A DNA stretch of 63,987 nt, counting the filler, from Sphacelaria rigidula (lineage: Eukaryota): the NCBI GenBank assembly GCA_964200075.2. It is 5 parts of 5 records of this genome, joined end to end, with 100 filler letters (N's around TTAATTAATTAA, not from the genome) between each part and the next. Parts side by side here need not be neighbours in the genome. Positions count along the whole stretch, not along the records: positions 51,273 to 63,987 come from CAXNAA020003480.1; 4 more parts are not named here. One strand, given 5' to 3'. This document shows positions 7,101-63,987 of the stretch, one piece after another. A program made the translations under genes and the position numbers. Below the pieces are notes generated by a model. That model was not told the DNA's origin. It did no database searches and was given only the letters and a program-made list of their open reading frames with translations. Every line of letters starts with the position of its first letter. The stretch's first letter is position 1.

Positions 7101-8465
7101 TGTTTCGAGAGGGATCCCAAGAAACGGGCGACTGCAAAGCAGCTCCTTTCCGACCCCTTTGTGGCCAAGCACCAGGGGGAACTGCCGCCCAAGGTGTCGA
7201 GTCCCACAAGCGACGAGGGCAGCGTGAGCGACATCGACAATCTCAGCCGCTCCGCGGCGATCGAGCGTATTCGTCGGGCGTCCACTCCCTGCGCGGTCGA
7301 TCATATCAAATCGAAACCCAGTCACAACGCTTCCAGCGTTCCCGTCACGGGTGCAGTCGCAGCGGTAGAGGCAGCAGTAGCAGTGGGATCCAGTCCACGC
7401 TGTTCCGGAGGTGCGATCGCCACCACCAAAACGACCTCTCATCATCGGCTTGGAACCTTGGACCAAAGCTGTCATGGGAGCGGGATCGCGGTTACCGCGG
7501 GACACTCGACAGGCTTCGTGCAGGGGAGCGATGCCAGCGGCAGCACGTTCTCGGCCGATCGATCATCTAGCGCACTGCGGCTGGAAACCCTCGACGACCG
7601 ACACCCAGAGGAGCCCGCCGCCGGCGAGGGAGCAGGTGGCACTAATGCTACGGCTGGTAACGAAGGACTCAGCGTGTCGCCTCGACTATCAGTGCGGACA
7701 GAAGAAGACAGCAGTACCAACAAATTCAGCCGGCCAGCATCCCTCAAGATTCGTGGTCGCGGGAGCACCACGCCTTCGCTCCGCCTTTCCACGGTCCACT
7801 CGGAGGTACACGGGGCCTCATGTCCCTCCAACGCCGGGGGGGCGCCGCGCGTGTCGACGCCGACGCGACGAACGTCCGGTGGCGGAAGCCGTGCGAACTC
7901 GTCCAGCCCGAACCCTTTCGGGGGAAGGCGGCGGTCCGTGGAGAGCTTGAGTCCGAGAAGCAGCACTAGTCGTGGCTGCTCTCCCCCGAATATGGCTGCA
8001 CGCCATGTCGGCGGGACCGTCGATCAGGCGCACGAGGTTGCTGGAAACCATGGCGCTGCAGGAAATGCGCGTGGGCCAGAGGGGATAGGGGAGGTCGGGG
8101 AAGGCTCGGCGCGGGAGCGGGTCGGTGCGAGGGGACGGGAGCGGGAGCGGGCCGAAGTTTGCGACGGCAATGCTACGAACACGCTTGTGGTGACGGAAAG
8201 ACCCGTGGTCTTGGAGAAATTACAGAATTCGGGGTCGGATGTCGCTCGAGATTCGGATACACCGCGGTGTCGAGCTCCCGTAACGATGGGTGCGGATCGT
8301 GCGGATCGTGCGGTGGCTGAGGACGGCAGTGACGGGGTGCGGTTGAAGAATATTAACTCTGGGCGGGGGAAGCGACCCAGCGCGGATGCAGGCAGGAGGG
8401 AAAGTCATATAGCGAGTAAAGCGGCGGTGTCGACCGCCGCCACCATCCCCAAGTTAAGATTATAG
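4176..8465 (+). CDS. STE11/MAPKKK-like Ser/Thr kinase, 3' part; exons 4176-4415, 5796-5903, 6930-8465
   Basis: Exons join in frame via GT-AG introns to give [23 protein letters not shown]|...[57 protein letters not shown], followed by a long Ser/Gly/Arg-rich tail. No N-lobe exon (GxGxxG, VAVK) was found in 1-4175. Confidence 0.9.
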
Positions 8466-12721: not shown

Positions 12722-12821
12722 NNNNNNNNNNNNNNNNNNNNNNNNNNNNNNNNNNNNNNNNNNNNTTAATTAATTAANNNNNNNNNNNNNNNNNNNNNNN
12801 NNNNNNNNNNNNNNNNNNNNN
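12722..12821. other. Assembly gap with artificial TTAATTAATTAA linker (also 25542-25641, 38358-38457, 51173-51272)
   Basis: N-run + TTAATTAATTAA + N-run of the same total length four times; the linker places stops in all six frames. Confidence 0.95.
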
Positions 12822-24836: not shown

Positions 24837-26182
24837 ATGCTGGTTAGGAACTCCAACAAATGACTTCGGAAAACAACACACGTGCTCAAGAATCTACTGC
24901 CAAGTCGATGCGATGCACTATTGCCCATGTACTAGCTGAGCTACGATGGAGGATTGAGATTGCTTTGCGACAATATGCCAAGAGGCGGAACCTTTGAAGA
25001 CTAGATATGACATTAGAAGTTGATAGTAGCCACCGCTACTCAGCAGTGTTTCAAGGAGAAATCATAGTTGGTTCTTTTCGTCTTCGAGCCAACTATGCCC
25101 TGTCGTGTGGTTCGTGTGATATTTCTACGGGAACTTTTACGCGTTTCCTCGCGTGGGCTAACGCATCCTCTTTTGTACCCCACTTTTGAGATGATTTACC
25201 CTTGACTCAGAATGTTCTGCCCGAGCTCATAAGTGTTTTGACGACTGTAGGTGTGCCCACGCAGGCACAGCCAGCTGTCACATTTGGCCAACGCGACTCG
25301 ATCCCACGCTTTTTGCCCTACTTGGCGTGGCATTTTTTCCTTGCAATATTCTCGAGGCACGGGAGAACACATCGCATTCCCGCAGAAGCAGTAACTGTAC
25401 TGTGTGAAAGAGGTTTCCGTCGGAGCTTGAAAATATCCCCCCTGCGCGCGCACTTTTAGGAGTAGGAACGGTGCTCCGTCTCGAAAGGGATGCGTAGTCA
25501 ATGGTCAAACGACTAAGGCAAGCAACAAATGAGTACGCCCCNNNNNNNNNNNNNNNNNNNNNNNNNNNNNNNNNNNNNNNNNNNNTTAATTAATTAANNN
25601 NNNNNNNNNNNNNNNNNNNNNNNNNNNNNNNNNNNNNNNNNGTCGAGGGGGAGTGAAGGGGGGGTGGGGTGGGGGGGGGGGTGAGAATAGAAAGACAAGA
25701 ATAACACCCCCAAGAAACGGCACAGAAACGAGCATATGCTTTCGGTCTTCTTGCCTGACGTCCAGCCACAACTGGTTGTTGCCCTGAGTAATGCAGAACC
25801 CTTGGTCCCAGCAGCTAGGGCTAGAGAAGTCTTGATCGTTCCACAAAACCTGAGCAAGAACATGACGGCAACCGATATAAGGAGGGAAAAAAGTAAAAAA
25901 AAAAAAAACGAACACACATTACTATAAAGCACGTCATCACCGTATACCGGTGAAGATTCAAAACGCAGAAGTCATTTTCCAAACGCTGCATGAGTAGTCA
26001 TGCTCTGTCACAACACTTCGTCAGCCACGTGCATTGTACTGCTTCCCCTCTCTTCTCTCGGTTATCATGGACATTTTCCAGAGAGAAGTCGATGCATCAA
26101 AACGACAAGGAAAACAAATGCAATCATTTTCACGACATTCCCGCCGGGGGGTAGTAGTTCTCCACCGCTTCCTTGCGTGCTG

Positions 26183-31200: not shown

Positions 31201-34200
31201 CCTGGTCGAAATTTCGTGATTCAATGCACTGGTAGTGGCGAGCACTGCCGCTGCCTCGACCCCGCGCTACCTCTTTGAGCTAAATGATGTTTTCCCTCAG
31301 TCATTATTTAGAAGAGGGATTTTGGTCTCCAGTTTTTTTTTATTGTGTTGCTTTTATTTGTTTCTTGTTTCTTCGGGTCACTCCATCGGTTTTTCTACTT
31401 TTTCTTCTTGTCTCCTCATTTTTCTCTTTCTTTAGCAAGTACTCATGTCATGTTTGCCTTGGGTACGTGTATCTTACGTCTAATGACCACGCCTGGGTGA
31501 GACGGTCCCCTCGGGGATCAGTCAATTAGGGACAACCCACCAACCAACCAATCAATCAAGCATACGGCAACCTTCGCCTAACATCTTCTAAATCCAATAT
31601 GTGCTTGAGGCTACATCCTCCTGGATCAATACCATGTCCTCTGTTGATCAAGCAAATCGAAAGAGTATAGTAAAAACCACACTCCAGGAACCATCCTTCC
31701 GCTTTTTGAATATGGCTATCATTTCGGGTACTCGTCTAGTCCCAACTTCTTATGGCTGGGACAAAGTCTCCTGGGCGCAGATCGTTGGTAAAGGACACAG
31801 TAAATCTAAATTTACCCCCCCCCTCCCATTGATTGTACTACGTAGTGTTTGAGTAGTGAGACACTCATGAGGCAGTGTATAAGCCGTGGCTGTCTCTGGA
31901 AGTGGCGATGCCAGAAAATAAAGCAATTCATTGTAGGCTGTCATCCAAATGCAAGAGAACCAGTAGGCTTGGGTCCGGACACTCTTAGCAGGATGCAGCT
32001 CACCCTTNNNNNNNNNNGGTGGTTTGAGTGCGAGCCTGGTCCGGCGACAACCCGGCGTGCTCCGCCCCGGCATGGTAGGTATGCGAGGTTAATGGTCTTA
32101 TGACTATAGCACGCATGATCATGGGTACACTCCCCTCCCACATGCTCACCATACAAGTCGTCCGGCTTACTACCGCATTTGTCCCACCCTCCATCCCTGT
32201 GCCCAAAACCACCCTCATGTCCTCGTCCCGCACCACTGCTTCTTTTCCGACGCACGCTCCCCTGCCTGCTACCCCCTTCCTCGCCCTCCTCACTTCTGCC
32301 GTATCGATGCCACACCTGCGCCAGCCAACGATATCGGAGGGGGAAGGGGGATATCAGGTTCCATCCGAAACGGTGACCAGATCGTGTGCGAGGACGGCTA
32401 GTAGGCGGTGGGCGCAAGGCTGTGCGGGCAGAGGCAAGCAGACTGCCGTTCGCGACACACTGACATGGCATCACTGTGTGCCTTGCCTAGCGACAGACGC
32501 TAAATAAATAGCATGGGCGGGGGGTACTCATTTGTTGCTTGCCTTAGTTGTTTGATCGTTGACCACGCATCCCTCTCGAGACGGAGAAGCGTTCCTACTC
32601 CTAAGAGCGACACCGCCAACATTTCGGCGCTCATGATGTTTCTTTCGTGCATTACACAAAAGCGTTCAACATATCTTCTCCCCGTCCTGTTTCGCCGTTG
32701 TGGCCACCGTCCATCTCCTAGTATAGCCATAATTTTCTCCCTACTGTCTGGTACATAAAAAAAATTCATGCAACCTTCGTGTACGCCTCACATTTCCCCC
32801 CTCTAGCAACATCCGGGGGGAGAAGTAAAACTATAGTTCCGCCAAAACTGTCAAGTATTGCTTTGTTACATTCTTCGGAATCGCACTGCACGTGTGAGCG
32901 ATTTCCCGACTTCGACGCTTGCACCTGTGAAAGCCAATGACAATCCCGGCTGAAACAACGTACCTCCAATTGCACCTCCACACCCCGTTTACGATTTCTT
33001 CGACAGTTCGCGCAGCTGCACGGCTGCCTGCCCTCGCCCGCCCCAACCCAATAGCTGGCTCCCGATTGTCGCTGTTCGGTCGCTGCGATGCACGTCGTTC
33101 CGGGGCTAGCGCTGGTGGCGTTGTACGGTTCATCATCGTCTGCATTGGAGGCGTCGTCATCCTCTGGCGGTGGATCTGGTTCCGCAAGGTCGGATCGTAT
33201 GAGGAAGTGCTCTTTCCATTCTGGACGTCTGGTCTTGTGGTCGACCTTCGTTTCACCTACCTGCGTGCCGTTGTCGTTGTTGTTGTTGTTGTCATGTTCC
33301 AATGTTGTTGTTGTTGTTGTTGTTGTTGTCATGGTCCAATGATGTCGTTGTTGTTACGCATATGATACGAACATGTTCTGAGCGAGAATTGCGTCGGGTG
33401 AATTAATAAGCCGGGGACAGTCTTGGCTTTCAAGAACAGATCGATTTGAGTACGTCGACCTACTCCGTCATGCTCTGGTCGCGCATGCATAGACTTGCTT
33501 TCTCTTTCCAGGACTCACATATGTCGCCCCGGTGGCTCAGTTGGTAACCTCGTAACCTTTCGACGGTTGAGTAGTGGGGCTCAATTCCCGGAGCTATCTG
33601 GGGTCTTTTCTCACACCAGGCCCAGCAGTGGAGAGCGACTATGCCGTGGGTACACAAAATGCGACTTAACGGTCGACGAGGGAAAGGGACTGCTGAACCC
33701 CTCTCGCGATTAAAAATTAAGGCAAGCACCGCAGAAGGAACAAAAAAAAGAAGAAACTCCTGTGTTGACCTTCCTCCTGTGCGACCCCGGCTGATGCGCC
33801 TACATATGCCGAAAGGTGTAGACTGGCGCCCAGAATAAATGGGACGACAACACACACACACACATGGTAGGAATGCTTTCTCCCAGCGATGTGCAACGAT
33901 GTACGCGAGTTCACTGAGTGTACGTGACCGGATGAGCAATTTACAGGCGTCGGCAGCACACCCCAACACAAAGTACAATGCGCAAGACATCGTTGTTGAA
34001 AGTGCACGGAATAGCGCACCACATTCCGTCAACATCTACGAAACAACTTGATGTATCAGCGGGGCTAGCCGCCGAGATATTCCTGTTTTCAACGCCAAAG
34101 GGGCTCCAGGTTTCACACAAAACCTCACCAGGCAGAGACGCCAATGCAAAGTAATACTAGCTCACGGCGGGTATGGCCTATCCCACTAAGGACCGTAGGT

Positions 34201-36796: not shown

Positions 36797-39700
36797 TGTT
36801 ATGGTTATATCTGTAGCTCAATGAACTGCGGCAGGTAGATGAAGATTGTGTGCTTGATGAATCTATTGGGTTCCACTGCAGAGTACACAGCAGCATTGCA
36901 TCCACCCTAAATCACCGACTATGGCGCTGTCCATGCCCCGGAAAGCAAGAAGCATCGCGTCTTGCCGAAAACTTTGACGACAATAAGCTAAACAGTCGCT
37001 GCTAAACGCGTGGTTCCATAATCTCGATTGACGTTCTATATGACGGGATATAACACCCTTCGACGGATGGAATATCATAGACGTAAGAGGACCAAGATGC
37101 TCTCCGATATACTGTAAGTGTAGTACAGGCGTCAATTGTATCCACGAAAGGGGTAGATTCATCGTATAGAATCTTTACTCTGCTCATGGATGGCTTTGCT
37201 GAGAATCTCCAGGGTCGCTCTGCTACTGACTGTCGCCTTGTGCGGGATCAGTAAGCGTAGGTTGTTCTGGGATCTGGATTTACATGTACAGTACAGTAGA
37301 ACGCAGTTGGCCGTGTAGAAAGTACATTCATGTGCGGAACGAATCACGATTAGAAATCACGGCCATCGAGTACGACCGTAAGCATGCACCCACGGCTTCA
37401 CTGTCTTGCATCCCCCACAGGCAACTCTATCATTTGACCATAGGGCTTTAATATTGGTATACCAAAAAAACAGAGGGAACAGACGGAAGTACGAGAATAC
37501 CCAACCAAAGGGAAGCGTCGTGCGTCGCGGGTGTAGTTCCAAGATCTTGGCTACCACGGGTGGCAGACCAGAGCACCGGGAGACACCCGAGGTACAGACA
37601 GGCGCAGGTGTGTGCTTGTTCGCAGAAATAGCAACCCCCTTCAACATAAGTTTCAAGAACAACGAAATCCTAAGGTGGTGTACCCGATGCGTACATGCAC
37701 GAACTAAAGCTCTAGTTCAACCGACGGGGCCGTTCTAGCTGAAAATGCCACTCTCGTGCGTGGAAACGTGTTCGCCCACCGACCAAGAACATCGCAAAAC
37801 ATCACGATCCATGCCTTCCCAGTCTTCAAACTTCACTCCTCCCCTCGACGTCCTGTTCGTATTTCCTTCTTCGACGCAGCAACCATATTTCTCTCCGCCC
37901 ATGGACACAAAACAGGTACCACTTTTGGTGATCAAAAAGGTGTCACGTGTTTCCAGACAAAAACGACGGCACCAACAGAGCGAGTAATATTTGAAATTTC
38001 TACGAGTATAGCTCTCGTGCTGCTGCAAGCCACACCACGTGTACCCCGTACAATATTCCAAACATCTTCCTTGGTATGAAGAGAAAAAATACCCATCCAA
38101 GAACTTCTGCATCATATTTGTTGGGACAATTGCGTTCAAAAAACGAATCACTGCAGAAGAAGCGTTCTCGAGGTTCCTCACGGTACGCTGGGCAAACAAC
38201 GCCATACGCGCCCTCAACACGGGACCTATTCTTGGTAGATGAGAAGGTTTCTATACCGCAGCAACCTCGGTCTTGACTGACGGCTGCACCTGACGAGCCA
38301 GAGTACCCCGAGGGTTGTACGAGGAGGTAAGGGGACGGGGGGCGGGTGAAGGGGAGGNNNNNNNNNNNNNNNNNNNNNNNNNNNNNNNNNNNNNNNNNNN
38401 NTTAATTAATTAANNNNNNNNNNNNNNNNNNNNNNNNNNNNNNNNNNNNNNNNNNNNATCGAACCCCCCACCTCAACCATCAGAAGGTTACGAGGTTACC
38501 AACTGAGCCACCGGGGCGACCGGTTTCTTAGTCTAGGTCAATATACAAAAAAGAATGTACCCTCATGTTTTTGGAACATTAAAGGGTGCTGCATTTCCCG
38601 GATTGAGGCGCGGCGCTGCACGCGGGCTTCACACCTCGAAAACACGTTCCAACGCCTCAGCCCCACGGCCAAGGTGCCTGAGCAGCGTGCCCGACCATTT
38701 TCTGTCATTGTTGTCACACGTGATATTAGGCTGAACTACCTCGCAGAGGGGGAGAGCCTGTGAGATTTTTACCCTGTTTTGTCAAGGAACATACGTGAAA
38801 AGTCTTGCCGGAACACACACGCCCGAACGGCATCATGTAGCGTCATAATGTGGAACATCAGACGGTGGACCTGCTATTTGACGTTGGATCTTCGTAATGT
38901 TCGGCACACAAGCGTTCGCGCCCTGGATGCATCGTGGGATTTTTCGGATCTGCGGGCCAACCGGCGGGGGGCTACAAATTCTTGGTCCTTGGGTTTGGGC
39001 CTTTTTGGCAGGATGTAGTTCAATATATACATATATACATATGTGGGTATGGTTGTCACTGTTCGACGTATTTTTTGCGGAGCCCGCGGTACGGTCACCA
39101 CTTCACAAAGGAGGGTCTGCACTTGAGCACAAAGGGGTACACACGTGAACATGAGAGGGTACGGGATGAATTTTTAGCAGAGAGTAGGGTGTACAGGGTT
39201 GTTGACAAAACAGGGTAATCTAACAGGCTCTCCTTTTCCGCGCCGTAGTTGAGCCTAAGACCACGTGTGACAACAATGACGGAAAATGGTCAGGCATGCT
39301 GCCCAGGGACCTCGGGCGTGGGACTGGGGCGATGGACCGTGCTTTCGAGGTGGTCGGGTCGCGTGCAGCGGCCCGCCCCGAACCCAAAAATACGGCACCC
39401 TTTTTTTTCCAAAAACATGAAGGTATACCCTTGCAGTGCACTGCCCTTCAGTGTAAGTGTGTTTCTGCTACTCACGTCCTCATGTGCCGACGATGGAAAT
39501 CCGCTATTTGCTGAAGAAAAAACAAAAATAATAGTATCTTGCGGAACCTCGAACCCGTAGTTTTCTACTTTCGAATGACAGCTTTCGGTTGGACCAGTCG
39601 GATCAGCTGGGCGCGGTCATGATTTTCATTGTTTTCCCACTAAGTTCATCCATGAGTGAGTGTTGCTTGTGTCGACTCCTTGTGCTCGTGCTGTCATATT

Positions 39701-50956: not shown

Positions 50957-53790
50957 GGAAGCAAAACAAACGATTTCATTCCACCTTCGTCCACGTCTCG
51001 CTTTCCCCCTCTAACACGTCCCCTTCCTCCTTGTATAGTCCACATTCTGCCACTATTTGACTTCTGCTATCTATTTCCTTGCCACAGAGGCAGTCCTGTC
51101 CATCTACTTCCTCTCTCTCAACCACCCGTATATCTCCAGATGTTCTTCCTTGTCTACTTTGCGTCTGAGCGCNNNNNNNNNNNNNNNNNNNNNNNNNNNN
51201 NNNNNNNNNNNNNNNNTTAATTAATTAANNNNNNNNNNNNNNNNNNNNNNNNNNNNNNNNNNNNNNNNNNNNGACTGTCCCAGCTGCTGTCCTCAGCCCT
51301 GGTTGACTGTACCACCGAGAGCACACCACAGATCAAAGAACCTACTAGTGAGAAGAAGGGATTCTCTATTTCTGCGGAGCGAAATCTAGGTTCCTCTCAC
51401 AATACAGGGCTTTCGACCGCGGGTACGGAGTATGTACTTCGAACTAGAATAATACAAAACGGGAGCAGCTGCCGGTTTTAGACGTGAGCTAATTTTGCCT
51501 GCGCTCACCATAGACAGTGCCGCGCAAATGCGTCGTCGCGAAAGCTCCGCCGACCGAACGTCCGTAAAGAGTCTAACCAGCGAAATTTTATGGAGCTAGA
51601 TCAATGAACATGAGACGACAACGTTTCCCTGTGACGACGGATCGTGAGCGTCACCCCATCTCAATCCACGACATACAGCACAGGCACCGTAGTTACGGTA
51701 GGTACCCGGTATCCCTTTTTGGGGCATCTCATACCCTACCGATATCGGTCCACTCGAGTATTTTAAATTTTCATACCTACGATACCCACGATACCACGGT
51801 ACTTCGATATTCCGATGCCAACGAGTCGATGAATAGACATATCCGTCGATCGATCGTTGCGCCGCAGACAAGAAAACAACGTTAAACGACGCAAACGCCT
51901 CTTTTCTTCCTGGAAAAAATCGACGAATCATGATGAAATCAAGTTACTTTGACTTGATTGATTTGAGTTGATTAGATTATGTAAATCAACTAACCAACGA
52001 GGCGTTAGCGTGATTGTTCATATAAATCAAAGCAACGTTTAAATCAAAATCGACCGTGATTTGATAGTTGATATACAACCGTACTGTCATGATAATTTAC
52101 ATAGAACCTACCACGGTTCGAACGAATCATTGCCGGTTTGAGTAGCCAAATCCACGATTTCTTAGGCCTGATTGCTCGAAGAGAGAAGAGAGTCGACCGC
52201 TTGTCAAACAGGTCTTCACGCAACGTTTGCACCATTCCATGTGCCTGGGCTGCGCGTACCTGGCTTGCAACGCTGAAAACAAAGCCTAAGGATCGATTAG
52301 TACGGTACGACTCAATAACACCAAAACCAAGTAATTTCCAGACGAATAATCAATTCGTCCGACCGTGGGAGGCTACAGACAGTGCAGTGAAGTATACAGT
52401 ACAGACAGTACAGTATCGTTCACTGTTCTCAACGAAGCACCTCCGGCTTCTCCTCGATGTTTCTGATGGGGACACACACACAGCATAGTGGGAGAGGACG
52501 CTCGGCTTTAGGCTTAGAAGAGGGAAGCCAGAAGAGAGAGAGGGAGGGAGATATAGCAACACACAGTAGGACACAGCAACAACAGCAGACCCCAGACGCT
52601 TTGCCTTGGGTTGCCGACGTCAAATATTGTACGCACTAGAGGGAAGCCACTCTCAGAACACATTACACGAACTCTTGGCTATATACTGAGAAGAGGCGAA
52701 GCAGAAAAGACAGGAGAGAGACCAACACAGATAGCGATGACCATGGTAGATGCGAACTCCTTGCGGATTTTGACTACAGCCAGGCTCACCCTGCCGTTTT
52801 TGTGGCCGCTCCATCCTTGTTGTCCGGGGCAAAACTTCACGACGTGACGACCCGATTTGAGCTCGCTCGTAGTATTGTTGGTAAGGCGTCAACACTTCTT
52901 ATCCGCTTGTCAAACCCCGTGCGAAGCGCAGCTCTGCAAGCACAGACAGTTCAGTAGTGCAAGGTCGCACCTGTACAGTCTTTATTCATTACCGTGGAAG
53001 CCGGGATACGTCCGCCGCCCGCGGACGTTGCGACCGCAAGCGCCCGTACTACCACCGTTTGTCGACAGTCGACACACGGCATGACGGAGAGTAGTTCGAA
53101 TCAATCACATCACATATTTTAACACCACCTCCCATCTCAGTCACGGACGGCGTCGGCACGCACAAGCGAAGAAAAGAAAGCAGCAATAAAGCTGAACCTT
53201 CTTGAGGGTTTAAAGTGATTCGTAGAGCCGGTTGCTGCGTGTGATGCCTCCAACCTCCAAAAGTGCCTCGTTTGAAGTTGCGACAGTCAAGTCTGAGAAG
53301 TTCAAACAAGACAAGTGCTGGTCAAAAGGGGTCGAGTTGGGCTGTTGTTGAGATCGCTTACAGACAGAAGCGATACACAATGCCATGAGCACCAATGAAG
53401 CTGAAACTCGTTGAGGGCGTCTCGCTTGATGTTAGGAGAGCGATGGGATGTTTTTTTTGCGCCGCACGGCTTCGGATCAGTTTGGGAAAAAAAAGTGCGT
53501 GGTCCATAGCTTCGTTATGAGCCCCTGACAAATAGGACACTAATTGAATTTCGATCCAGTAGCTTTTTCGGTCTAGGGCCTCAAAGGCAATCGTCAGTAT
53601 GTATTAAGCTCGTGTGGCAGTTCAAATCTATACCGGCGCCTTACCGACCAACATATTAGAGAATTTGGGAAAACAAAATTTCGAGCCAAAACCTCCTGGA
53701 TAATTTGCGTCTTCTTACTAAAATCCAGTCAAACAATAATTATCGCTGAGATTTTACGGCCTGGTCGTGTTTTCCGAAACTCTCGATCGC

Positions 53791-54008
53791 CTGGCTAACA
53801 TATATTGAGGTGGCGCGTGTCGTGATGTACTCTTCGTCGATCGATATGTATTGCATGCCGCGAGCCTTGACATATTGATGACACACTATATATTGACCTA
53901 CCTCTCGTGCCATCATATTGCGCGCCCGAAATGTGTTTTCAGACACCCGACGGGCCGACATATTGAGCGGGTAACGTATATTACATGATGAGTTTCCAGG
54001 GTGTGAAA
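53791..54008 (-). repeat. ~220-bp repeat; inverted partner at 59533-59740
   Basis: Its reverse complement TTTCACACCCTGGA..CGCTCAATATGTCG..ATGGCACGAGAG..CATGCAATA..CACGCGCCACCTCAATATATGTT matches 59533-59740. Confidence 0.8.
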
Positions 54009-54317
54009 TATTGTTGACGTGTGTACCACACTTCGTGAGGGGGACTGATGCTCCCTGCGAGTGCACCCTCCCATACGGTGAGGAGTGATCTGCAAGCAAC
54101 TTCAATACTCAATTACCACGTCGGCTTTTACGTATACCATGACGCATTCGATTTTTCCGACTCGCGGTGACCCTTGTACGGTCGCTTGAAAAAGTGTCCG
54201 TCCTTGCTTCGAGTCCCGTACAACGTATATAACACGCCAGCCAACTTCACAGTTTCAGGTGGTTGACCACGTCTGGCATTTAAACCACATGGATTTGCGA
54301 TACAATCCTCGATATTT

Positions 54318-54450
54318 AACCCTTTGGGAACTCAAGTGCTGATTCCTGTTTTGTGAATCTTTGTGAATCGGCATCATTTTGACTTGAAAATGATGCCGAT
54401 TCACCAAAACAAAAATCAGCACTCCCTGGGGGTCTAGTTCCCAAAGGGTT
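54318..54450. repeat. Hairpin of ~133 nt
   Basis: AACCCTTTGGGAACT/AGTTCCCAAAGGGTT, AGTGCTGATT/AATCAGCACT and GTGAATCGGCATCATTTT/AAAATGATGCCGATTCAC pair in nested order. Confidence 0.85.
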
Positions 54451-55271
54451 GAGCTCAAGTAAAAACTGCGACGCTGTCCTGCAAATGGAGTCGGCACCGC
54501 TTCCAACGAAAGTCTGACTCACCTACAGTAATATAGATACTTTATTCAATTATTTTCACCTCACGTGGTCGAGGTTTCTGTGTTGCACATGCACATGGGT
54601 ACCCAGGCTCTCTGTGTTGACAACAGCACTCCAGACGGTGTGAAGCCATGCTGGCAACACATCAGGCGTCAGACAGGCGGCACAGACCTCGAGCAGAGGT
54701 CAAAACAGGTCAGATGTACCCAAAATATCTGTGGTTGATTTGTCCTGACCAAAATGAAAAATGCCCGTAGGCAGCAGCTAGTCAACCTGCAGGCGGACTA
54801 CTTGCTCATTTTGACGGCCGCGATCAGTCAGAATGGTCATTCCGCGCCTCTCGTGTCCCTGGCTTAGGATCTTCCAGGAAAGCTCTCCAAACACACATGG
54901 TTGACTTATGAGGTTTTCGGCTGCTCTACGGACAGACAACCTCCCCCAGTCACTGGAAAACCCCTAACTTCTTGGGACGTTCTGCCTGTGAAACTGTTCC
55001 TACGCGATCCTCGCTCTTCAAGGATTGAATTAACTGATCAGGATTTCCTCTTTGGTGGGATCTCGTTCCCAATCACACGCAGGAACCTTCATCTAGCTGA
55101 ACCCCAGCTTTTTCAGGATCCCAATGACCTCACAAACTGTTTCGCATAAATACAAGAGAAAACGCCATGCCGACGATTGATCACTTGAGATCGTGGACAA
55201 TATACGCAAGACACACCGAGACCCTTTCCGAGTAATCTGAGCAACGGCACCCGTACAAACAAGGGTACCAC

Positions 55272-57536
55272 CTACCACGTATCGGACGTCCGAGGAGCGG
55301 GACTAGACACTCCAAGCTCAAACTTAACGTTCGAATTCTCCCTTGCCCCTTCAAAGGCCACATCATCGAATGTGCCCAGGTATCCAGATACCACAGCCGG
55401 CGAACCACAGAGTCGCCCCGTGCTCCCGATAACACTGGATATGACGCCGTTGTTACCACGTTTTCTGCTTTCGCCTCTCAACGGCACGACCTGCTTGCGA
55501 CACTCCTTCTCCCCATCGCCATCACTTTCAGCAGTGGGGACTGCCAGCTCTATTTTCATTGCCGCTCCTGCGCTTACTCCTGAAGACAAACCATCGGTTG
55601 TCGAGGGTGGGTATACCGAGAGCAAAGGTGGGTGTCCTGAATGCAATGACGTTCGTTCACCCTGCCGGGGACCAGTGCACACGCTGCGGCGAGTACCAAC
55701 ACTGTCGTTTGCAAGAGAAGCCGACAATGCTGCGCGCTTCCGCTTTACTTCGCGTGAGTTACGAACGCTTTCTCCGCCACACTCCTTCGCACTAGGGCCA
55801 ATGGAGCCCTCCCCAGTGTTGAGCTTTGTGGTGTCCGACGCCATAGCCGTGACGTGTTCATGAAGATGCTGTCGGGAAAACTTTGCTTCATCAACATGAG
55901 TTTTTTTGTCGAGAGCTGATGCAGAGCATTCCTCTTCCCTGTACCTCTCGTTCCTCACGTTCACTATTCCCGCCCTGGCATGCTTGAAACAGAAATCTGC
56001 CTTCTTGCTTCCCACCACATCATACGACGGATGCGTGGAGCAGCCCTGGTCGCCGCAGCTCTTCTTTACTCTTATCATTCCCACCCTAGCATGCTTGGCG
56101 CAGAACTCCGCCTTTTCGCTTCCCGCTACACCGGAGGACGGCCTCGTGGAGCAACCCCTGTGGCCACACTTTTTTACGTTCACCATTCCCCGCCTAGCAT
56201 GCTTGAAGCAGAACTTCGCCGTTTTGGTTCCTGCTACACCGAAGGACGGCCTCGTGGAGCAGCCCTCATAGCCGCACTTCTTGCTCGCACTTACCATTCC
56301 CGCCGTAGCATGCTTGGAGCAGAACTCTACCTTTTTGCTTCCCGCTACTCCATACGACGGCATCGTGGAGCAGCCCTCGTAGCCGCACTTCTTGTCCTTC
56401 ACGTTCACCATTCCCACCCTGGCATGATTGGAGCAGAACTCCGCCGTTTTGCTTCCCGCTACACCATACGACGGCATCGTGGAGCAGCCCTCGTAGCCGC
56501 ACTTCTTGTTCTTCACGTTCACCATTCCCACCCTGGCATGCTTGGAGCAGAACTCCGCCGTTTTGCTTCCTTCTACACCATACGACCGCACCGTGAAGCA
56601 TCCTTCGTAGCTGCACTGCTTTTTCACATTCACCATTCCCACCCTAGCATGCTTGGAGCAGAACTCCGTCTTCTTGCTTCCCGCTACCCCAAAAGATGGA
56701 AACGTGAAGCAGCCCTCGTAGCCGCACTTCCCCTTCACATTCACCATCCCCACCCTAGCATGCTTGGAGCAGAACTCCGTCTTCTTGCTTCCCGCTACCC
56801 CATAAGATGGCATCGTGGAGCAGCCCTCGTAGCCGCACTTCCCCTTCACATTCACCATTCCCGTCTGGGCATGCTTGGAGCAGAACCCCGCCTTCTTGCT
56901 TCCCGCTACACCATAGGACGGCCTTTTCAAGCAGCCCTCGTAGCCGCACTTTTTGTACTTCACGTTCACCATTCCCGCCCTGGTATGCTTGGAGCAGAAC
57001 TCTGCTTTTTTGCTTCCCGCTACCCCATACGACGGCATCGTGGAGCAGCCCTTGTAGCCGCACTTTTTGTCCCTCACATTCACCATTCCCGCCGTAGCAT
57101 GCTTGGAGCAGAACTCTGCTTTTTTGCTTCCCGCTACCCCATACGACGGCATCGTGGAGCAGCCCTCGTAGCCGCACTTCTTGTTCTTCACCTTCACCAT
57201 TCCCACCCTGGCATGCTTGGAGCAGAACTCCGCCATTTTGCTTCCCGCTACACCATACGACCGCACCGTGAGGCATCCTTCGTAGCTGCACTGCTTTTCC
57301 ACATTCACCATTCCCACCCTAGCATGCTTGGAGCAGAACTCCGTCTTCTTGCTTCCCGCTACCCCAAAAGATGGAAACGTGAAGCAGCCCTCGTAGCCGC
57401 ACTTCCCCTTTCCCTTCACATTTCCCGTCTGGGCATGCTTGGAGCAGAACTCCGCCTTCGTGCTTCCCGCTACACCATATGACGGCCTCTTGAAGCAGCC
57501 CTCATCACCGCACGTCCGTCTCACCAAATCCACCAT
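55272..57536 (-). CDS. EsV-1-7 cysteine-rich repeat protein (same repeat family as Ectocarpus IMMEDIATE UPRIGHT), 754 aa, 14 repeats
   Basis: Tandem 36-38 aa units C-x4-C-x3-PSYGVAGSKKAEFC-x2-H-x3-GMVNV followed by a ~200-aa low-complexity tail. Family recognised from the repeat motif; not claimed to be the IMM ortholog. Confidence 0.92.
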   Translation of the reverse strand: MVDLVRRTCGDEGCFKRPSYGVAGSTKAEFCSKHAQTGNVKGKGKCGYEGCFTFPSFGVAGSKKTEFCSKHARVGMVNVEKQCSYEGCLTVRSYGVAGSKMAEFCSKHARVGMVKVKNKKCGYEGCSTMPSYGVAGSKKAEFCSKHATAGMVNVRDKKCGYKGCSTMPSYGVAGSKKAEFCSKHTRAGMVNVKYKKCGYEGCLKRPSYGVAGSKKAGFCSKHAQTGMVNVKGKCGYEGCSTMPSYGVAGSKKTEFCSKHARVGMVNVKGKCGYEGCFTFPSFGVAGSKKTEFCSKHARVGMVNVKKQCSYEGCFTVRSYGVEGSKTAEFCSKHARVGMVNVKNKKCGYEGCSTMPSYGVAGSKTAEFCSNHARVGMVNVKDKKCGYEGCSTMPSYGVAGSKKVEFCSKHATAGMVSASKKCGYEGCSTRPSFGVAGTKTAKFCFKHARRGMVNVKKCGHRGCSTRPSSGVAGSEKAEFCAKHARVGMIRVKKSCGDQGCSTHPSYDVVGSKKADFCFKHARAGIVNVRNERYREEECSASALDKKTHVDEAKFSRQHLHEHVTAMASDTTKLNTGEGSIGPSAKECGGESVRNSREVKRKRAALSASLANDSVGTRRSVCTGPRQGERTSLHSGHPPLLSVYPPSTTDGLSSGVSAGAAMKIELAVPTAESDGDGEKECRKQVVPLRGESRKRGNNGVISSVIGSTGRLCGSPAVVSGYLGTFDDVAFEGARENSNVKFELGVSSPAPRTSDTW

Positions 57537-58254
57537 ATCCGTCCTGGCGTGCTCTGAGAAGACCTCCGTCCTCTAGCCCTGTGGACCGTGGGATGACCGC
57601 TTGGAGCAGCCGTTGTTGACACACCGTCTCCACACAACGTTGGTCAACAGCGTCTCCGGTAACGCCCCTCCGATGACTACCTGTGCACAGTAGCACAAAG
57701 AGCATGGCGGGGAGGAATACCTCGTCAGCCATGGGTGGAAGCAAGCTGGAACGCTTTAAGGGACACATTGCATTGTTATTTCTACGCATGCTTCGGAGAA
57801 AACGCATATGCCTCGATTCAACTCCGACGATGCCCCATATGAGCTTACCCAAACTACAGCACTATTTGCAACATAATTTCAACGAATGGCACATCCTTTA
57901 CACCACTGCAAAAGGTTCGGAAGTGGATCCAGGACTAGTATAGATATATGGCAGCATGATGGTGTCATTGAAACATGCGAAGTTCAACGTCAAACCAAAG
58001 GATGCCCAGCCGTTCCAAAGGGACCCCACGCATTGACATGTTACAAAATAACAAACTCCTAAAATGCAGGTCACGCAGCGCGACCCAGCTAGAAATGATT
58101 GAACAAACCAAAGAGCCAAGTATCATTATTGACGAAGCGAGCGATTGCTATGCAGCAGCACATCAGCAAAATGCGTGGGTACTCGGTTGAACGGCGCTGC
58201 TAAATGTTCATGCCCAAAAGGCCCAGCAAAAAAGCGCACGCCTCATGGCTTTTG

Positions 58255-58745
58255 AGGGGGGATGGGGGCAGAGGTATGTATCCATGATCTTGCATGCCAT
58301 AGTCATACGGCCATTGACCTTGCATCCCCAAGAAGCCGGGACGGCTCACACTGGGTTTTTGTCGGACCAGGCTGTCAATAGATCACCAAGCGCTGAGCGC
58401 CGTGGTGTGTTCGGCGAGTCGCGTGAAGGGCGAGCTGCATCCTGCCAAGATTGTCCGGCCCGAAGCGTACTGATTATCTTGCATGTGGATGATAGCCTAC
58501 AATCGAGACGCTGCATTTTCTGGTATCGTCACTTCCAGAGACAGCCACGGCTTATACTCTGCCTCATGGCTGTCTCACTGTTCAAACACCACGCAGTACG
58601 ATCATCTCCTCTGCGCGGAGTTAAGGTCCTTCAGCCCTGCACAATATGATCTCGCTCGATCACCATCACGGTTGCTGCAAAAAAAGCACAAGCGCGCAAA
58701 CAAAATCGGTGACTTTGTTGCCTAGCTTACGCAGTGGGTGGCATG
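58255..58745 (+). repeat. Dispersed ~450-bp repeat (family C)
   Basis: Core GGGTTTTCGCCGGACCAGGCT..GAGCTGCATCC..TTGCAT(A/G)TGGATGA(C/T)AGC. Copies at ~29885-30165 (+), 31855-32125 (-), 62065-62535 (-); fragments at ~58800-58840 and 61980-62010. Confidence 0.8.
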
Positions 58746-60565
58746 CAACACGGAGTCATCGGCAACCGACGTCAACTCCATAGGAGTTACGGCCCCACCG
58801 AGCCGGAACGGAGCACGACGGGTTTTCGCCGGACCAGGCTCCCCTGGATTGGGAGGGGGTAACGGCGACGCTGGCCTCTCAGATAGGACAACTCAGAAGC
58901 GGACATGTATTCTATTTTACACAGGTGTTGTTGTGGTGGCTGTGTAAGCTTTTACATAGACTCAGTTGACCATCTGTGTTCCAGACTCCATGAGAACCAT
59001 GACGGTATAAACCCAAGCTTTGTACAGAAATCGACATCTATAAGACATCAGCAAGGATGTTCTACGGTTTTGATAATGTCAGCTGCAGCAAGACCTGAAA
59101 CAGCTGAGCAAAAACGTACACAGGCGATTGTACGTTTTATATACGAACGTTCCAGCAATGCTGCAGTTGTAAAACAACTGCGCCCGTTCCTTGAAGATTT
59201 GTGGTTCCTTCTGACGTAATGAAAGAACACATCGGTGAAGATTACAATTGAAACAGTATGTAGACAGTGGGTATGAATCAAGAGCATTACAGCGACCACA
59301 TATGCTGTCATCGTTCCGATGCACACTCGGTCTACATGGCAAGATATACTGCGAAAACGCCGACACGCACAATGGATAGTCGGGGCATGTATCGGTACCG
59401 GCCGGGGTAGGTGCAGTAGATTCTCGCTGGCGCACGAAGGCCAACTGCGGGTGCATAGTCTTGGCCAGCTTCTCATCTGTCTTCTGGCGTTCTCTTTTGA
59501 CAAAATAGCAAGAGTGTCCCGATGAGACATTTTTTCACACCCTGGATAACTCAATATGTGATTAATATAGCTCGCTCAATATGTCGACGCGTTGCGTGTC
59601 CAATATATATTGGCCGAGAAATGTAATGGCACGAGAGAGAAACACATCATGTCATCAATCTGTCGAGGTTCGCGACATGCAATATATTTCGACCGAATAA
59701 AATATCACGGCACGCGCCACCTCTATATATGTTCGCCCAGTAATGTGTTGGCTGCCAGACGAGGTCAATATAAACTGACGGCTCAATATACTCAACAGCC
59801 GCGGCGCCAAAATAGTTTGACTACCCAGTATGTCGTGCGTCGATGCATCCGATATATATTGGGCGAAAAATGTGTGTGTGTTGTTATCCCATCTGTTCTG
59901 GACGCCGTTCTACACCTTTCGGTATTTGTGGGCGCACTAGCTGGGGTCGCACACGAGGGAGGCCAACATGGGAGTTTTTAGTTTCTGTTTGTTTCAGTTG
60001 TCCACCGTCGTTCTGCGGTGCTTGTCTTTCTTTCAGTGTTATTCTTTTTCAATGATATGGAGGCGGTATACAGAAATTATAATTCCTCATCCTCACGGCA
60101 ATAATCTTAGACGGCCATGCTCCAGAACTTGCAAACATCGTGGACTGGAGAGACGCACACATCCTTGGAAGAGAGGTGTCCACATCAGCACGGATAACTG
60201 GCGGTACAGAGCAGCTTCAGCGCATATCTTGACGGGGGGGGCAAGCATGTATGTCGCTGCGTAAATGGGAAGCATTTGTTGTCCGACATACCAGGGCGCA
60301 AATGCAAGCACGAATAGTCCGTGATTCGATCGCCTGTGCTCCGCCTCTGTGCGGTGTATACGGTCTGGTACAACGTAGGCGGTCGTGTGGCGAGGAGTAG
60401 GTGTGTATACAAAAGGGGCGGTGGGTTACCTCTGCAGCTGAAAATCTGAGGTTTGTCTTGGGTCTGACGGTGGATAACACCTCCCATGAACTTTGATTGC
60501 CCGGGTGTGCGCTGTGACGAGGTGGATAGGAAGGAGGCCACTCCTTGTGGCAAACACAAGAAAAT

Positions 60566-60976
60566 TCCTGTAAACCTGTTTGCTCGTTTTTTTTCGTCCT
60601 ATTTCGTCGTTTAACGTTGTAAGAAGGAGTTAAAGAGAGCATGGCACCTTGAAATGACTTGCTCTGTTCGTCGAGGCGGCTCGACGACATTTCCGCGTCT
60701 TTCGGCGGCCGCAGTTTATATTTTTGCCGAACAAGCATTTTTGTCCGTAGACGGCCAAGTACAGATAAAGATGACAGTTTTTTGTTAGATCCGACCGTTC
60801 TTGGACAAAAATGCTTTTTTAGCCAATATAGAAAACCGGCCACCGGAAAACGCGAAGGTGTCTTGCAACGGCCTCGACTACTGTAATAAGTCACTCCACG
60901 GTGTCAGACTCCATCTAGCTTTCTTTCATGGCGTCAACCCGACGAAAAAAAGACAAACAAATGTAGTTTTACAGGA
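60566..60976. mobile_element. MITE-like foldback element
   Basis: TCCTGTAAA/TTTACAGGA, TTTTTTTCGTC/GACGAAAAAAA and AAGCATTTTTGTCC/GGACAAAAATGCTT. A single-arm homolog lies at ~10125-10270. Confidence 0.7.
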
Positions 60977-60999
60977 CTTCCTTTTTATTGTTGCTATGA

Positions 61000-61440
61000 A
61001 ACCATCTTTTATTGCAACCAATCTCGACCTGTGGGAATATGCGAATTCCGCCCGTCTGCAGGCGATTTTTCGAACCCCCAATCCGTTGGGCAATGTTTTC
61101 CGGCTAGCTGTGAGCTAATCAGATCAATTATGAGATTCTCTGGACGTTGACGTTTGTTCCATCACCTTTCTACTCAAATCAGGACAATCCCGCATCTGCC
61201 TCGATTGTTTGGGATAATCGGGGGAGATGCGGGAGAATCCTGAATTTCGCAGAACGGTGAGATACCAGAGGACAACGTCCGGATACTCTGAGAATCGATG
61301 TCGTTTGCTCACAGCTAGCCAAAAAATGTTGCCCAACGGACTGGGGTCCGAAAAATTCATCCCCAGGAGAAAATCGCCTTCAGGCGGACTGAAATCGTCA
61401 TATTTGTACAAATCGAAATTGATTGCCATGAAAGATGGTT
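61000..61440. repeat. Second long foldback directly next to the first
   Basis: AACCATCTTT/AAAGATGGTT, CCGTTGGGCAA/TTGCCCAACGG, GGCTAGCTGTGAGC/GCTCACAGCTAGCC, CCCGCATCT/AGATGCGGG. Confidence 0.85.
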
Positions 61441-62699
61441 GAAGGAGCGGCGTAACAGCAGGTATTAGTTATCACAACACGCCAGTCGCCCTCCCTATTT
61501 GCCCACAATTTTTGCCTGAACAGGGATTATGCAGGAAACAATCGGGGTGTAAATCCAAGTTGGGCTTGAATTCATCGACCATTGAGTTTCAGGATCGAGA
61601 TTTGCATCATGGACACCGGGACATGAAATGTTCGTGTCCATGGCAGTTCGCCGATCGACGGCTGCATTCCTGAATCAAGTGCTTGGAATTATCCACTATC
61701 CGCCCCACCAAGTTGGATCCTGATGACCGATCCTGTGAGGTCCTGTGGGCAAAAGCACTGTACCACGCACAAGGCGCTCCATGCGGTGCGAACATGTGCA
61801 ACCGGGTGTCTCGGGTAAGGGGCACTGTACTGACTGTTGAGTACCGAATATGCCGCAGATATTGCTGCGACCCACGCTTGAAAGGGCGCGTGGAGTGCCC
61901 GGTTGTTTGGTAGACGGTCAATGCGCTGATCACGACCCCCCCCCTCCCTCTCCCCCGCCCGCCCCCAGCCTGTTCGGGCGAGCACCCGGCGTGCTCCGTC
62001 CCGGCTTTGTAGGGGCGGACCCTCGATGGGATTGGCGTCGGTTGGTGATGACGCTATGAAACACGCCGCTCACTGCTAGCTAGGCAACAAGCTTACCATT
62101 TTGTTTTGCGCGCTGGCGTTTGTTTTGCGGTAACCATGATGGTAGTCGAGCTAGATCGTGTTGTGCGGTGTGGGGGAACCTCAACTCTGCACAATGGGGA
62201 TGATCGTATCACGTACTGTGTAAATGGTGCGGCACCCATGAGGCAGTGTATAAGCCGTGGCTGTCTCAGGAAGTGACGATACCAGAAAATAGAGCAACTC
62301 ATTGTAGGCGGTTATTCAAATGCCAGATAATTAGTGGGCTTCGGGTCGAACAATCTGAGCAGGATACACACCCTCCATACGACTAGCCGAACACACCACG
62401 GCGCTTCGCGCTTGGTGATTGATCGCGAGCCTGGTTCGGCAAAAACCCGGCGTGCTCCGTCCAGGCTTGTAGGGATGAGAGGTCAGTGGTCTATGACTAT
62501 GGCATGCATGATCAAGAGTACACGCCCCCCCCCCCGCCGCCGCCGGATGTTGCCCATACCGTTTATCCTATCGTCTTACATACCATCGGGCGCAGGTGGG
62601 AACAATTGGGAAGGAGCACCACTGCGCGTGGGCCAAGAGGGGCCGCCACCTCCTGTGCCAGGAGCGGTACACCCCGCGTGCGAACCCGACTGCATAGCG

Positions 62700-63926
62700 A
62701 CGGATTACAGTAGGCACGCGGCGGTCCGGCGTTCGCCTCGGTTTTCCCAGTCTAGTCGTGACGCCACTTCCGACGATGAACCGTCGCCGGGTAGCACCAG
62801 CCGTGGCACGCCGGTCGCCGACGACGAGCGCCTACCGTCGTCGGCGGGCAGCACCTACCTACGGACTCGCCGACAGTCTGCAGCGACAGGGGAGGATAAC
62901 TCGGGAATGGTGGCAGGTTTCCTGTTGTGGGCGCAACGGCCGATGCCAGCCACCTGTGCAGAAAACCGGCGTGCTCGGCAGGCCGACGTGCAAACACCGA
63001 AGAGGCTGAAGCGTGCGACGCTACTATACGGAAATACGGCTAGTGGCCCCACGGAGGCGTGGCCGACGCCGTGCCCGGTGTGTTCCGTGCATTCCGGCGA
63101 TTGGTTGTGCTGCGCGTGCCACCGGCGACCGCCGAACGCACGAGGCGCCAAGCCCCTTTTTCGGCATCTTGCAAATGACTCGGCGGTCGCCGATGCGGCG
63201 GAATTCCGGGAGAGGATGTCAGTCACGGGCGCAGCGGCACAGACTACAGTTGTTAGGGGCTGGGTGCCGAGCCGCGGATGTCTGTGTCCCGCCCCCGATT
63301 GCTCCAATTCCGTGGTGAGGGCTAAGAAGTGGAATGGGCAGCAGGCGGGCACCGAAGACAGCGTTGATTAGAGCCGGGGAAAGTTTTCGACTCATGGAAG
63401 AGTTGTTTCGAGCGAGTGATGCTACGGCCAAGCACCCGGGTGTGGACAGTATCAATCAAGACGCAGATAGCCACCTCTACTCCGCCTCCCTCTGGGCCTT
63501 TTACAAGGAAGTGGACAGCATGTTGATCAAGAAGGGAGAGGACGAAACGTGGACCCTTCACCAATACCTCCTCCGCCTCGACACCTCCGACGCTCCCAGG
63601 ACAGGAGCGGTCTCCGTCCCCTCTCACATTGCTACGAGACGTGGTCGCCAAGATTGCCGCCGGGCGCTTCGTCGATTTGGACGAGACCTTCAATATCATA
63701 TGGCACGCCTGTCGCCGAGAGGGGTTACACGATGGCGCCTGGACTTCGAGTAACGACACCGCGAGAATCTTGGACCAAGTCGCATCTGCTGTCAGCTGTG
63801 TTCGCGGCCTCTCCTTCTCTGGGGGTAAGGTCTATCAAGACTGCAGGCGAAAGTGTAGTGCTGATGCCGCTCATGTTCGATGAATGGTGGATTGCGAATA
63901 TCTACGCCAGCGAGCGCAAGTTTTAG
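62700..63926 (+). pseudogene. Frameshifted intronless GC-rich coding remnant with Cys-rich motifs; family not identified
   Basis: Overlapping ORFs 62334-63371, 63334-63753 and 63629-63883 switch frame; motifs CPVC..CCAC and CLCPAPDC; flanked by repeat families C and A. Confidence 0.35.
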
Positions 63927-63987
63927 CGCGAGAACAACCAGCGGGAAGCGGGGAAGGAGGGGGGGGGGGGGCGTACTCATTTGTTGC

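Follow-up and report, generated by a model that had tools for sequence, protein, structure and literature searches.

A young fourteen-repeat EsV-1-7 array with a conserved tail in Sphacelaria rigidula, a candidate polyanion-binding protein

The window analysed here is a stretch of 63,987 nucleotides (nt) of Sphacelaria rigidula, filler included, joined from 5 parts of 5 records of assembly GCA_964200075.2; in the part that comes from CAXNAA020003480.1 (positions 51,273 to 63,987) its minus strand carries a long open reading frame (ORF), P0001, which encodes 14 tandem repeats of the EsV-1-7 type followed by a conserved tail. According to the parts of the family literature available, the EsV-1-7 family comprises 2018 proteins in 31 brown-algal genomes, forms their largest orthogroup and is possibly of viral origin; it includes the developmental regulator IMMEDIATE UPRIGHT (IMM) of Ectocarpus, the imm developmental phenotype being the only indication of what the family does, and the binding of zinc by the repeat motif has been proposed, not demonstrated. 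No ligand, structure or recognition code for the family was found in those same parts of the literature, in agreement with an earlier, sequence-only reading of this DNA, which held that no ligand is established and went on to propose that the repeats might form a zinc-binding array reading nucleic acids one module per site. What is new here is a tail-bearing subfamily, a very young array in which change is localised to two codons, decayed units at the array ends and a probable transcript with a 5' intron, all of which amounts to a modest novelty.

The coding frame, its repeats and its tail

Against Pfam, P0001 matches PF19114 (EsV_1_7_cys) with 675.5 bits in 14 stretches, the gathering cut-off being 25, and the ligand pattern Cys-x4-Cys-x16-Cys-x2-His is present in 14 of 14 units, all 56 Cys/His ligands being intact. 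The family assignment made from the sequence alone is thereby confirmed, and the gene is, judged by its sequence, a new member of the known EsV-1-7 family. A homologue search of 5.8 billion proteins gave 196 matches at E<=1e-3 among 8000 scored candidates, and the best 120 of these 196 were examined; with a hidden Markov model (HMM) of the repeat, they and P0001 together yielded 653 full-length units from 121 proteins, and the same four ligand columns are 99-100% conserved in the 639 repeats of the 120 other proteins.

The repeat observation is real and far beyond chance. The regular expression C-x4-C-x16-C-x2-H matches exactly 14 times, as the sequence-only reading had counted, although the number rests on the assembly, since no single sequencing-run contig spans the array; contig joints inside it skip 223-230, 455 and 868 nt and look like repeat mis-joins. 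Its list of the tetrapeptides that follow the second cysteine is also exact (FKRP, FTFP, LTVR, STMP, STMP, LKRP, STMP, FTFP, FTVR, STMP, STMP, STRP, STRP, STHP), and Tandem Repeats Finder independently delimits 55951-57503 with a period of 111 nt, 13.9 copies, 82% matches and a score of 1806. The place of the array was thus well seen, its limits less so: they are those of Table 1, and the frame runs on for 223 codons past the array to 55275. Only 8 residues stand before the array, which begins at residue 9. The description of the repeats as lysine-rich is accurate as well (K 13.2% of the array, isoelectric point 9.6, net charge +61 over 531 amino acids, aa), and each of the 14 units has a net charge of +2 to +7.

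Both ends of the array carry a decayed unit. The start ATG of the ORF is the conserved Met31 of the one upstream, 'repeat 0', and at the other end the two cysteines that the degenerate cap repeat has lost are still present in several Sphacelaria rigidula paralogues. From the cap onward the protein consists of the tail, for which a HMMER scan of 1.84 billion representatives returned 34 proteins at E<=1e-3, among which 23 reach E<=1e-10; the named tail-bearing proteins are from Sphacelaria rigidula and have 0 to 6 strict repeats ahead of the tail, which also occurs in 10 of the best 120 (of 196) array homologues. Between P0001 and its S. rigidula paralogues the tail is 35-51% identical and conserved to its last residues (alignment A3), and by this alignment P0001 belongs to a lineage-restricted tail subfamily, the other known members of which are S. 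rigidula proteins. It contains a KRKR cluster, which may be a nuclear-localisation-like motif, and the only two psi-K-x-E motifs of the whole protein, MKIE and VKFE, which may be SUMO-consensus sites. The tail found no match in Pfam or in the PDB (by sequence and by profile A3) and no usable match in the ESM Atlas, and it is probably disordered.

The sole record of the P0001 locus in the protein collections is a 179-aa tail fragment, identical to residues 565-743 (55317-55843) and beginning at an internal methionine; the 14-repeat array seems to be absent from the gene call behind it. Antisense to the array lies a 500-aa open frame (55980-57482, plus strand), and further frames of 116-178 aa are found on both strands; all these frames merely mirror the codon structure of the repeats and do not represent genes of their own. 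A Pfam match to Phe_ZIP in P0001, and matches to Zf_WRKY19, CoV_NSP13_ZBD, Rieske, Tudor and other domains in the homologues, overlap the repeats with 0 independent stretches and were rejected as spurious.

Table 1. Features of the P0001 locus, in positions of the window (UTR, untranslated region; CDS, coding sequence; X6 and X7, two sequencing runs)
Feature	Position	Strand	Basis or remark
Coding ORF P0001, array and conserved tail	55272..57536	minus	754 aa plus stop; Pfam PF19114 E 8.1e-209
Array of 14 EsV-1-7 repeats (C-x4-C-x16-C-x2-H, 36-38 aa each)	55944..57512	minus	regular expression, Tandem Repeats Finder
Repeat R1	57402-57512	minus	
Repeat R2	57291-57401	minus	
Repeat R3	57177-57290	minus	
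Repeat R4	57063-57176	minus	
Repeat R5	56949-57062	minus	
Repeat R6	56838-56948	minus	
Repeat R7	56727-56837	minus	
Repeat R8	56616-56726	minus	
Repeat R9	56502-56615	minus	
Repeat R10	56388-56501	minus	
Repeat R11	56277-56387	minus	
Repeat R12	56169-56276	minus	
Repeat R13	56058-56168	minus	
Repeat R14	55944-56057	minus	
Decayed upstream repeat ('repeat 0')	57537..57623	minus	in frame with CDS; in-frame TAG 57573-57575; Cys3 to Ser
Degenerate C-terminal cap repeat, aa 532-557 (YREEEC...FSRQH)	55866..55943	minus	Cys1 and Cys3 lost
Conserved C-terminal tail, aa 532-754 (~220 aa)	55275..55943	minus	common to a subfamily; alignment A3
KRKR basic cluster (KRKRA), aa 598-601	55734..55745	minus	tail R67 and R69 nearly invariant in A3
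MKIE psi-K-x-E motif (MK[VI]E), aa 660-663	55548..55559	minus	Glu invariant, Lys nearly invariant in A3
VKFE psi-K-x-E motif (VK-x-E), aa 737-740	55317..55328	minus	near C-terminus; alignment A3
Likely 3' splice site of 5'-UTR intron	57681..57683	minus	ctgtgcacag before GTAGTC; X6/X7 contig ends
5'-UTR part of coding exon, if acceptor real	57537-57680	minus	
Probable 3' UTR	54678..55271	minus	X6/X7 contigs cover 54678-55418 and onward

Variation within the array and across the family

The scaffold of the repeat is indeed nearly constant, 12 of the first 33 repeat positions being invariant across the 14 units, and the entropy that remains is concentrated at position 9 (2.12 bits), followed by positions 29 (1.69), 7 (1.38), 33 (1.29) and 28 (1.15). 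The four residues after the second cysteine had been taken as hypervariable throughout, and this is true of positions 7 and 9 only; positions 8 (T12/K2) and 10 (P12/R2) are nearly fixed at 0.59 bits each, so that the motif is really x-[T/K]-x-P. The set was moreover incomplete, given that positions 29, 33 and 28 vary too.

That these residues take a small set of states is correct as a description, but the recurrence is mainly inherited by block duplication and not drawn from the vocabulary of a code, because units of near-identical sequence, a self-match of the array and a tree of the units all tell the same story. R2 and R8 are identical over 99 nt (100%), R3/R9, R4/R5, R4/R11 and R7/R2 share 95% of their nucleotides and R1/R6 share 89%; shifted by 675 nt, or six units, the array aligns with itself; and a tree built without codons 7 and 9 recovers the groups (R4,R5,R11), (R10,(R3,R9)), ((R2,R8),R7), (R1,R6) and (R12,R13). 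The expansion of the array is recent and went through tandem and block duplications of units of 111-114 nt.

Substitutions that have accumulated since then are unevenly spread. Nei-Gojobori counts over the 91 unit pairs, which are non-independent, give a ratio of non-synonymous to synonymous differences per site (pN/pS) of 4.5 for codons 7 and 9 and of 0.35 for the 30 scaffold codons, positions 7-10 left aside, and on the unit tree some 14 non-synonymous and 0 synonymous changes fall on codons 7 and 9, as against 55.5 and 35.5 on the other 32 codons (Fisher p 0.002, a value that flatters the result, the two codons having been chosen post hoc for their variability). Expressed per codon, these are 6.9 replacements at codons 7 and 9 compared with 1.7 elsewhere. 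By these ratios the scaffold is under purifying selection, and replacements pile up at positions 7 and 9, beside the zinc ligand Cys6, and less so at 28/29, beside His26. The 14:0 count lies only marginally above the neutral expectation. Unit R7 is a case in point: of its 99 nt, 5 are unlike those of R2/R8. Four of these differences replace residues at positions 7, 9 and 12 and thereby recreate S-M-Y, the state found in a different clade, yet the CCA TCT synonymous markers typical of the R2/R8 clade still lie between the replaced sites. This pattern points to selection or patchy conversion, not pure drift.

Across the family, positions 9 and 7 again have the highest entropies (3.60 and 3.59 bits over 653 units), with positions 2, 25, 29, 14 and 28 close behind at 3.3-3.5 bits. 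Averaged within the arrays of the 81 other proteins that have at least 5 units, position 9 reaches 1.82 bits and is among the top three positions in 45 of the 81, and position 7 reaches 1.49 bits (24 of 81), the next means being 1.39, 1.31, 1.30 and 1.29 bits at positions 29, 25, 11 and 2. The entropy comparison among relatives therefore upholds positions 9 and 7 as the most variable without upholding a steep distinction between them and the rest: position 9 does stand out in the family on these counts, yet the gradient is shallow and unlike the sharp two-residue contrast of TALE repeats. The residues found at position 9 in the 639 family units are above all R (23.5%) and Q (18.8%), then I (8.5%), H (8.0%) and K (5.3%), Asp being seen 0 times and Glu 8 times (1.3%), and position 8 is basic in 48% and acidic in 2%; on this tally position 9 is variable but not free. 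STMP, FTFP, [LF]TVR and FKRP were seen in no other protein among the best 120 of 196 matches.

Relatives, predicted fold and genomic setting

The closest named relatives among the best 120 of 196 matches are Sphacelaria rigidula proteins with 52-56% identity over the array, and no ortholog above 58% identity is found among them. Clustering of the non-repeat parts of these 120 proteins revealed that one C-terminal domain is common to 60 of them, and a strict motif, RPD...E.DE..H, occurs in 52. In a 35-protein alignment of this domain the residues D, E, D, E, R and R are invariant and RPD, the histidine and NPD nearly so; the look-alikes offered by a language model, PvuRts1I-like and DUF559 (Vsr-type) nucleases, score 0.85-0.88, below the trust level, and serve as leads only. 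Other partner domains among the homologues are rhomboid and the helicase-associated domain (HA), and a search for longer fused forms produced two proteins with EF-hand and reverse-transcriptase domains, which are possibly merged gene models. Two metagenomic homologues, P0046 and P0048, combine seven EsV-1-7 units with HA domains (PF03457) at the N-terminus and the shared nuclease-like domain at the C-terminus.

Relatives also occur on viral contigs. With homologue P0092 as the query they were found on 22 IMG/VR contigs, several of which are labelled giant-virus metagenome-assembled genomes (GVMAG), and 19 of the 22 ORFs possess the motif; a scan of the IMG/VR viral contigs with a segment of the window returned no relative. 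In four of the viral arrays the scaffold is likewise near-constant and the most variable positions include 9, 11 and 7, and in arrays with the nuclease-like tail the variability of positions 11, 24 and 25 is equally high. The giant-virus ORFs L010 (3004-4947), L012 (3004-4947) and L014 (2974-4752) carry 12 and 10 EsV-1-7 units ahead of a domain with the RPD...E.DE..H motif at the C-terminus, and the units of L010 differ mostly at position 9 (NTQP, NTIP, NTLP, NTRP, DKQP, DKRP).

AlphaFold2 models, which carry no metal, were obtained for units 1-5 (alignment of 123 rows; mean predicted local distance difference test score, pLDDT, 84.2; predicted template modelling score, pTM, 0.48) and for units 4-5 (125 rows; mean pLDDT 86.8, pTM 0.55). 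A modelled unit has short strands at positions 12-14 and 31-33 with a bridge at Phe22, and in the five-unit model most units make a turn at positions 24-26; positions 7-11 sit between the Cys1-Cys6 knuckle and the first strand, and the variable sites 24/25 and 28/29 flank Cys23 and His26. With all ligands intact and locally confident models, a zinc-binding module is plausible, and it is likewise plausible that the zinc site brings the variable residues together into a single patch. The combination of high pLDDT with low pTM suggests well-defined modules that are flexibly linked, like beads on a string, and not a rigid solenoid. A search of the PDB by sequence gave 0 matches for the five-unit array segment.

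As for expression, contigs from runs X6 and X7 cover 54678-57682 only, and their depth is zero over 54000-54166 and 57841-58174, two stretches that the DNA runs X1 and X2 do cover; X6 and X7 come from one study and are RNA by the tool's guess, none of the listed runs being on record as RNA, and the coverage is a hint of transcription, not proof. The X6/X7 contigs end their match at 57682 and continue in unlike letters, one of them for 343 nt, whereas one contig of the DNA run X2 bridges 57636-57817. Because the break lies beside a good 3' splice site on the minus strand (ctctttgtgctactgtgcacag followed by GTAGTC), an intron is placed in the 5' UTR, likely, though on a weak hint.

The surroundings are gene-poor, Pfam having matched only a kinase fragment among the 22 ORFs of the window: an open frame at 6810-8462 (plus strand), residues 38-118 of which match the C-terminal part of a protein kinase domain (PF00069, E 2.4e-10), and which is probably one exon of an intron-containing kinase gene. 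The window contains no second EsV-1-7 gene. A viral insertion was considered and rejected, no viral marker being recognised by Pfam among the 22 ORFs, and of mobile-element marks there is no flanking direct or inverted repeat of at least 25 nt apart from the array itself; a contig joint from 54417 to 58283 was discounted, its sides being just 21-22 nt and flanking repeats of at least 25 nt being absent. On either side of the gene lie very high-copy genome elements, at 54334-54500 and 58175-58842, where the word depth in each of the four runs is 1,000 to 10,000 times that of local single-copy sequence. A 63-nt direct repeat lies at 58311-58373 and 58778-58840. Over the window as a whole, paired 44-N runs 12 bases apart return about every 12.8 kb (12722-12821, 25542-25641, 38358-38457 and 51173-51272; also 13126-13134 and 32008-32017), and the last block, 51273-63987, measures 12715 nt, so that the pieces may have been joined or masked at regular intervals.

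What the array may bind, and comparison with known systems

The reading that we favour, with a probability of somewhat less than one half (roughly 0.45), is that P0001 is a tail-subfamily EsV-1-7 protein which uses its young array of 14 Cys3His modules to bind a polyanion, DNA or chromatin being the likeliest, and whose variable patch tunes the individual modules. The protein would thus be composed of an N-terminal array of 14 modules with one decayed module on either side, followed by the conserved tail of ~220 aa. Each module would fold round one zinc ion as a small knuckle with two short strands; flexibly strung together, the modules of this strongly basic array would bind the polyanion multivalently, presumably in the nucleus, and the variable patch beside the zinc site may set each module's preference. 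The tail, for its part, would supply nuclear import and regulation or the recruitment of partners, an arrangement that by analogy recalls the constant effector region and variable finger array of KRAB zinc-finger proteins. Nucleic-acid binding receives indirect support from the basic charge, from a position 9 rich in R, Q, H and K, from the nuclease-like fusions of 52 of the 120 listed homologues and from the KRKR cluster of the tail, further leads being the related loci on viral contigs and the HA domains of two homologues; DNA in particular is suggested because relatives join their arrays to the nuclease-like domain, which is guilt by association. A one-module-one-site code is possible, and is not supported beyond this.

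A number of results speak against this reading. The nuclease-like domain was recognised neither by Pfam nor by sequence searches of the PDB, where its profile A4 drew one chance match at E 2.2, and P0001 itself is without this domain and its RPD...E.DE..H motif, so that for this protein the fusion argument holds by association only. Nor does the predicted fold lead to a nucleic-acid binder: Foldseek found no match at E<=0.001 in the PDB for either model, the top rows being the coronavirus nsp13 zinc-binding domain at E 2.6, and the best matches of VIA-align among ~48,000 chains are RING domains with Z scores of 2.7 and 2.4, too weak to call a fold since a Z below 3 is noise level, just as an absent fold match excludes no family. 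The array of P0001 is also atypical of the family: M, F or V stands at position 9 in nine of its 14 units, residues whose family shares are 0.9, 1.9 and 2.2% and which are not typical base-contacting residues. Around 80% of changes are expected to be non-synonymous under neutrality, which makes 14:0 only marginal and would allow free drift at positions 7 and 9. For the tail motifs, nuclear localisation and SUMO are suggested by consensus patterns, and the RNA nature of X6 and X7 is a guess on two runs from a single study.

A rival explanation is that there is no code at all and P0001 is a young, fast-duplicating, non-specific basic zinc-module protein, a binder of DNA, RNA or chromatin in which positions 7 and 9 are unconstrained surface positions. 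The recurring states track duplication history, the variability of older arrays extends over ~10 positions in the shallow series of means given above (1.82, 1.49, 1.39, 1.31, 1.30, 1.29 bits and on), and the 14 non-synonymous to 0 synonymous changes exceed the neutral expectation only marginally; position 9, however, is not free, with D 0 and E 8 in 639 repeats and R and Q together at 42%, and the replacements of R7 at positions 7, 9 and 12, which recreate the S-M-Y of the other clade, point to selection or patchy conversion. We regard this explanation as unlikely, albeit a credible competitor. Rather unlikely, in our judgement, is that the array is a protein-protein scaffold with zinc modules as docking units, as in LIM, RING and B-box proteins, its variable patch picking protein partners. 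RING domains mediate protein-protein contacts and are the sole, weak structural look-alikes (the better one with a root-mean-square deviation of 3.4 over 48 aligned residues), the hydrophobic residues at position 9 would suit such contacts, and family members are joined to many unrelated partner domains, rhomboid, HA and EF-hand among them; on the other side, both Z scores belong to the noise, and the strong positive charge, positions 8 and 9 that are almost never acidic across the family and the recurrent nuclease-like fusion are a better fit to a polyanion than to a protein scaffold.

It could also be argued that the gene is a decaying or non-functional recent duplicate, the frame of which is open just because the array is young, as both array ends hold decayed repeats with a stop codon and lost cysteines, the tail fragment is the only protein-collection record of the locus, and few other genes lie in the region, which very high-copy sequence flanks on both sides. 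We consider this very improbable in view of 754 open codons, the intact 56 ligand residues of the 14 units, a scaffold pN/pS of 0.35, a tail whose conservation, at 35-51% identity with S. rigidula paralogues, reaches its final residues, and contigs of probable RNA that cover the transcript span only.

Beyond the polyanion-binding reading of this single protein lies a much bolder proposition, which we hold to be improbable: that the EsV-1-7 repeats represent one more natural class of modular DNA readers built on zinc, in which positions 7, 9 and 11 together with 24, 25, 28 and 29 would form one patch setting the preference of each module, that giant viruses would use them to aim nucleases, and that brown algae would have domesticated and expanded the arrays, here with a constant nuclear tail, as fast-evolving gene regulators comparable to KRAB zinc-finger proteins. 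Should EsV-1-7 proteins truly bind DNA, they would constitute a large new class of candidate transcription factors for brown-algal development, and the P0001 locus in any event offers a clean natural experiment, since its 14-unit array is very young and amino-acid change since duplication is concentrated at two positions beside a zinc ligand.

With the brown-algal EsV-1-7 proteins (PF19114 / IPR043822; IMM; gene 7 of the virus EsV-1), P0001 shares the same tandem repeat of ~37 aa and a large lineage-specific expansion. It is set apart by its architecture, for IMM has a unique N-terminal domain before five EsV-1-7 repeats, as stated in the part of the source available (10.1101/2024.02.19.579948), whereas P0001 has no N-terminal domain, 14 repeats instead of five and another C-terminal tail, and on these grounds of architecture is no IMM orthologue. 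According to what is available of a 2026 preprint, no Ectocarpus EsV-1-7 gene has a further Pfam domain; the tail of P0001 is like those genes in being without another Pfam domain, and it is so far confined to Sphacelaria rigidula proteins. The viral proteins that combine arrays with a nuclease-like domain resemble it in the repeat, in the youth of their arrays and in variation at positions 7, 9 and 11, and differ from it in their C-terminal domain, which P0001 does not have.

For the likeness to TALE and PPR codes, on which the sequence-only reading was built, the signs are mixed: positions 7 and 9 do vary on a constant scaffold in a young array, and across the family position 9 comes first. 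Of the four residues, however, no more than two vary, the recurrence of their states stems from duplication, older arrays have ~10 variable positions, and no match to the fold of a DNA-binding finger was obtained. From C2H2, TALE and PPR proteins P0001 is separated by its Cys3His ligands with their 16-residue spacing, and no relationship of sequence or fold to them was found; the module would also differ from C2H2 fingers in its predicted short strands, with at most one helical turn and no recognition helix. The resemblance to KRAB-ZNF/C2H2 arrays, TALE and PPR proteins is one of working principle only, and consists of tandem near-identical modules, replacements at fixed positions and a fast turnover by duplication. 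To this concept, which is not new, the P0001 locus adds an algal case and a new tail subfamily, and it is KRAB-ZNF proteins that it recalls in a further respect, namely a constant non-repeat region common to a subfamily whose arrays differ.

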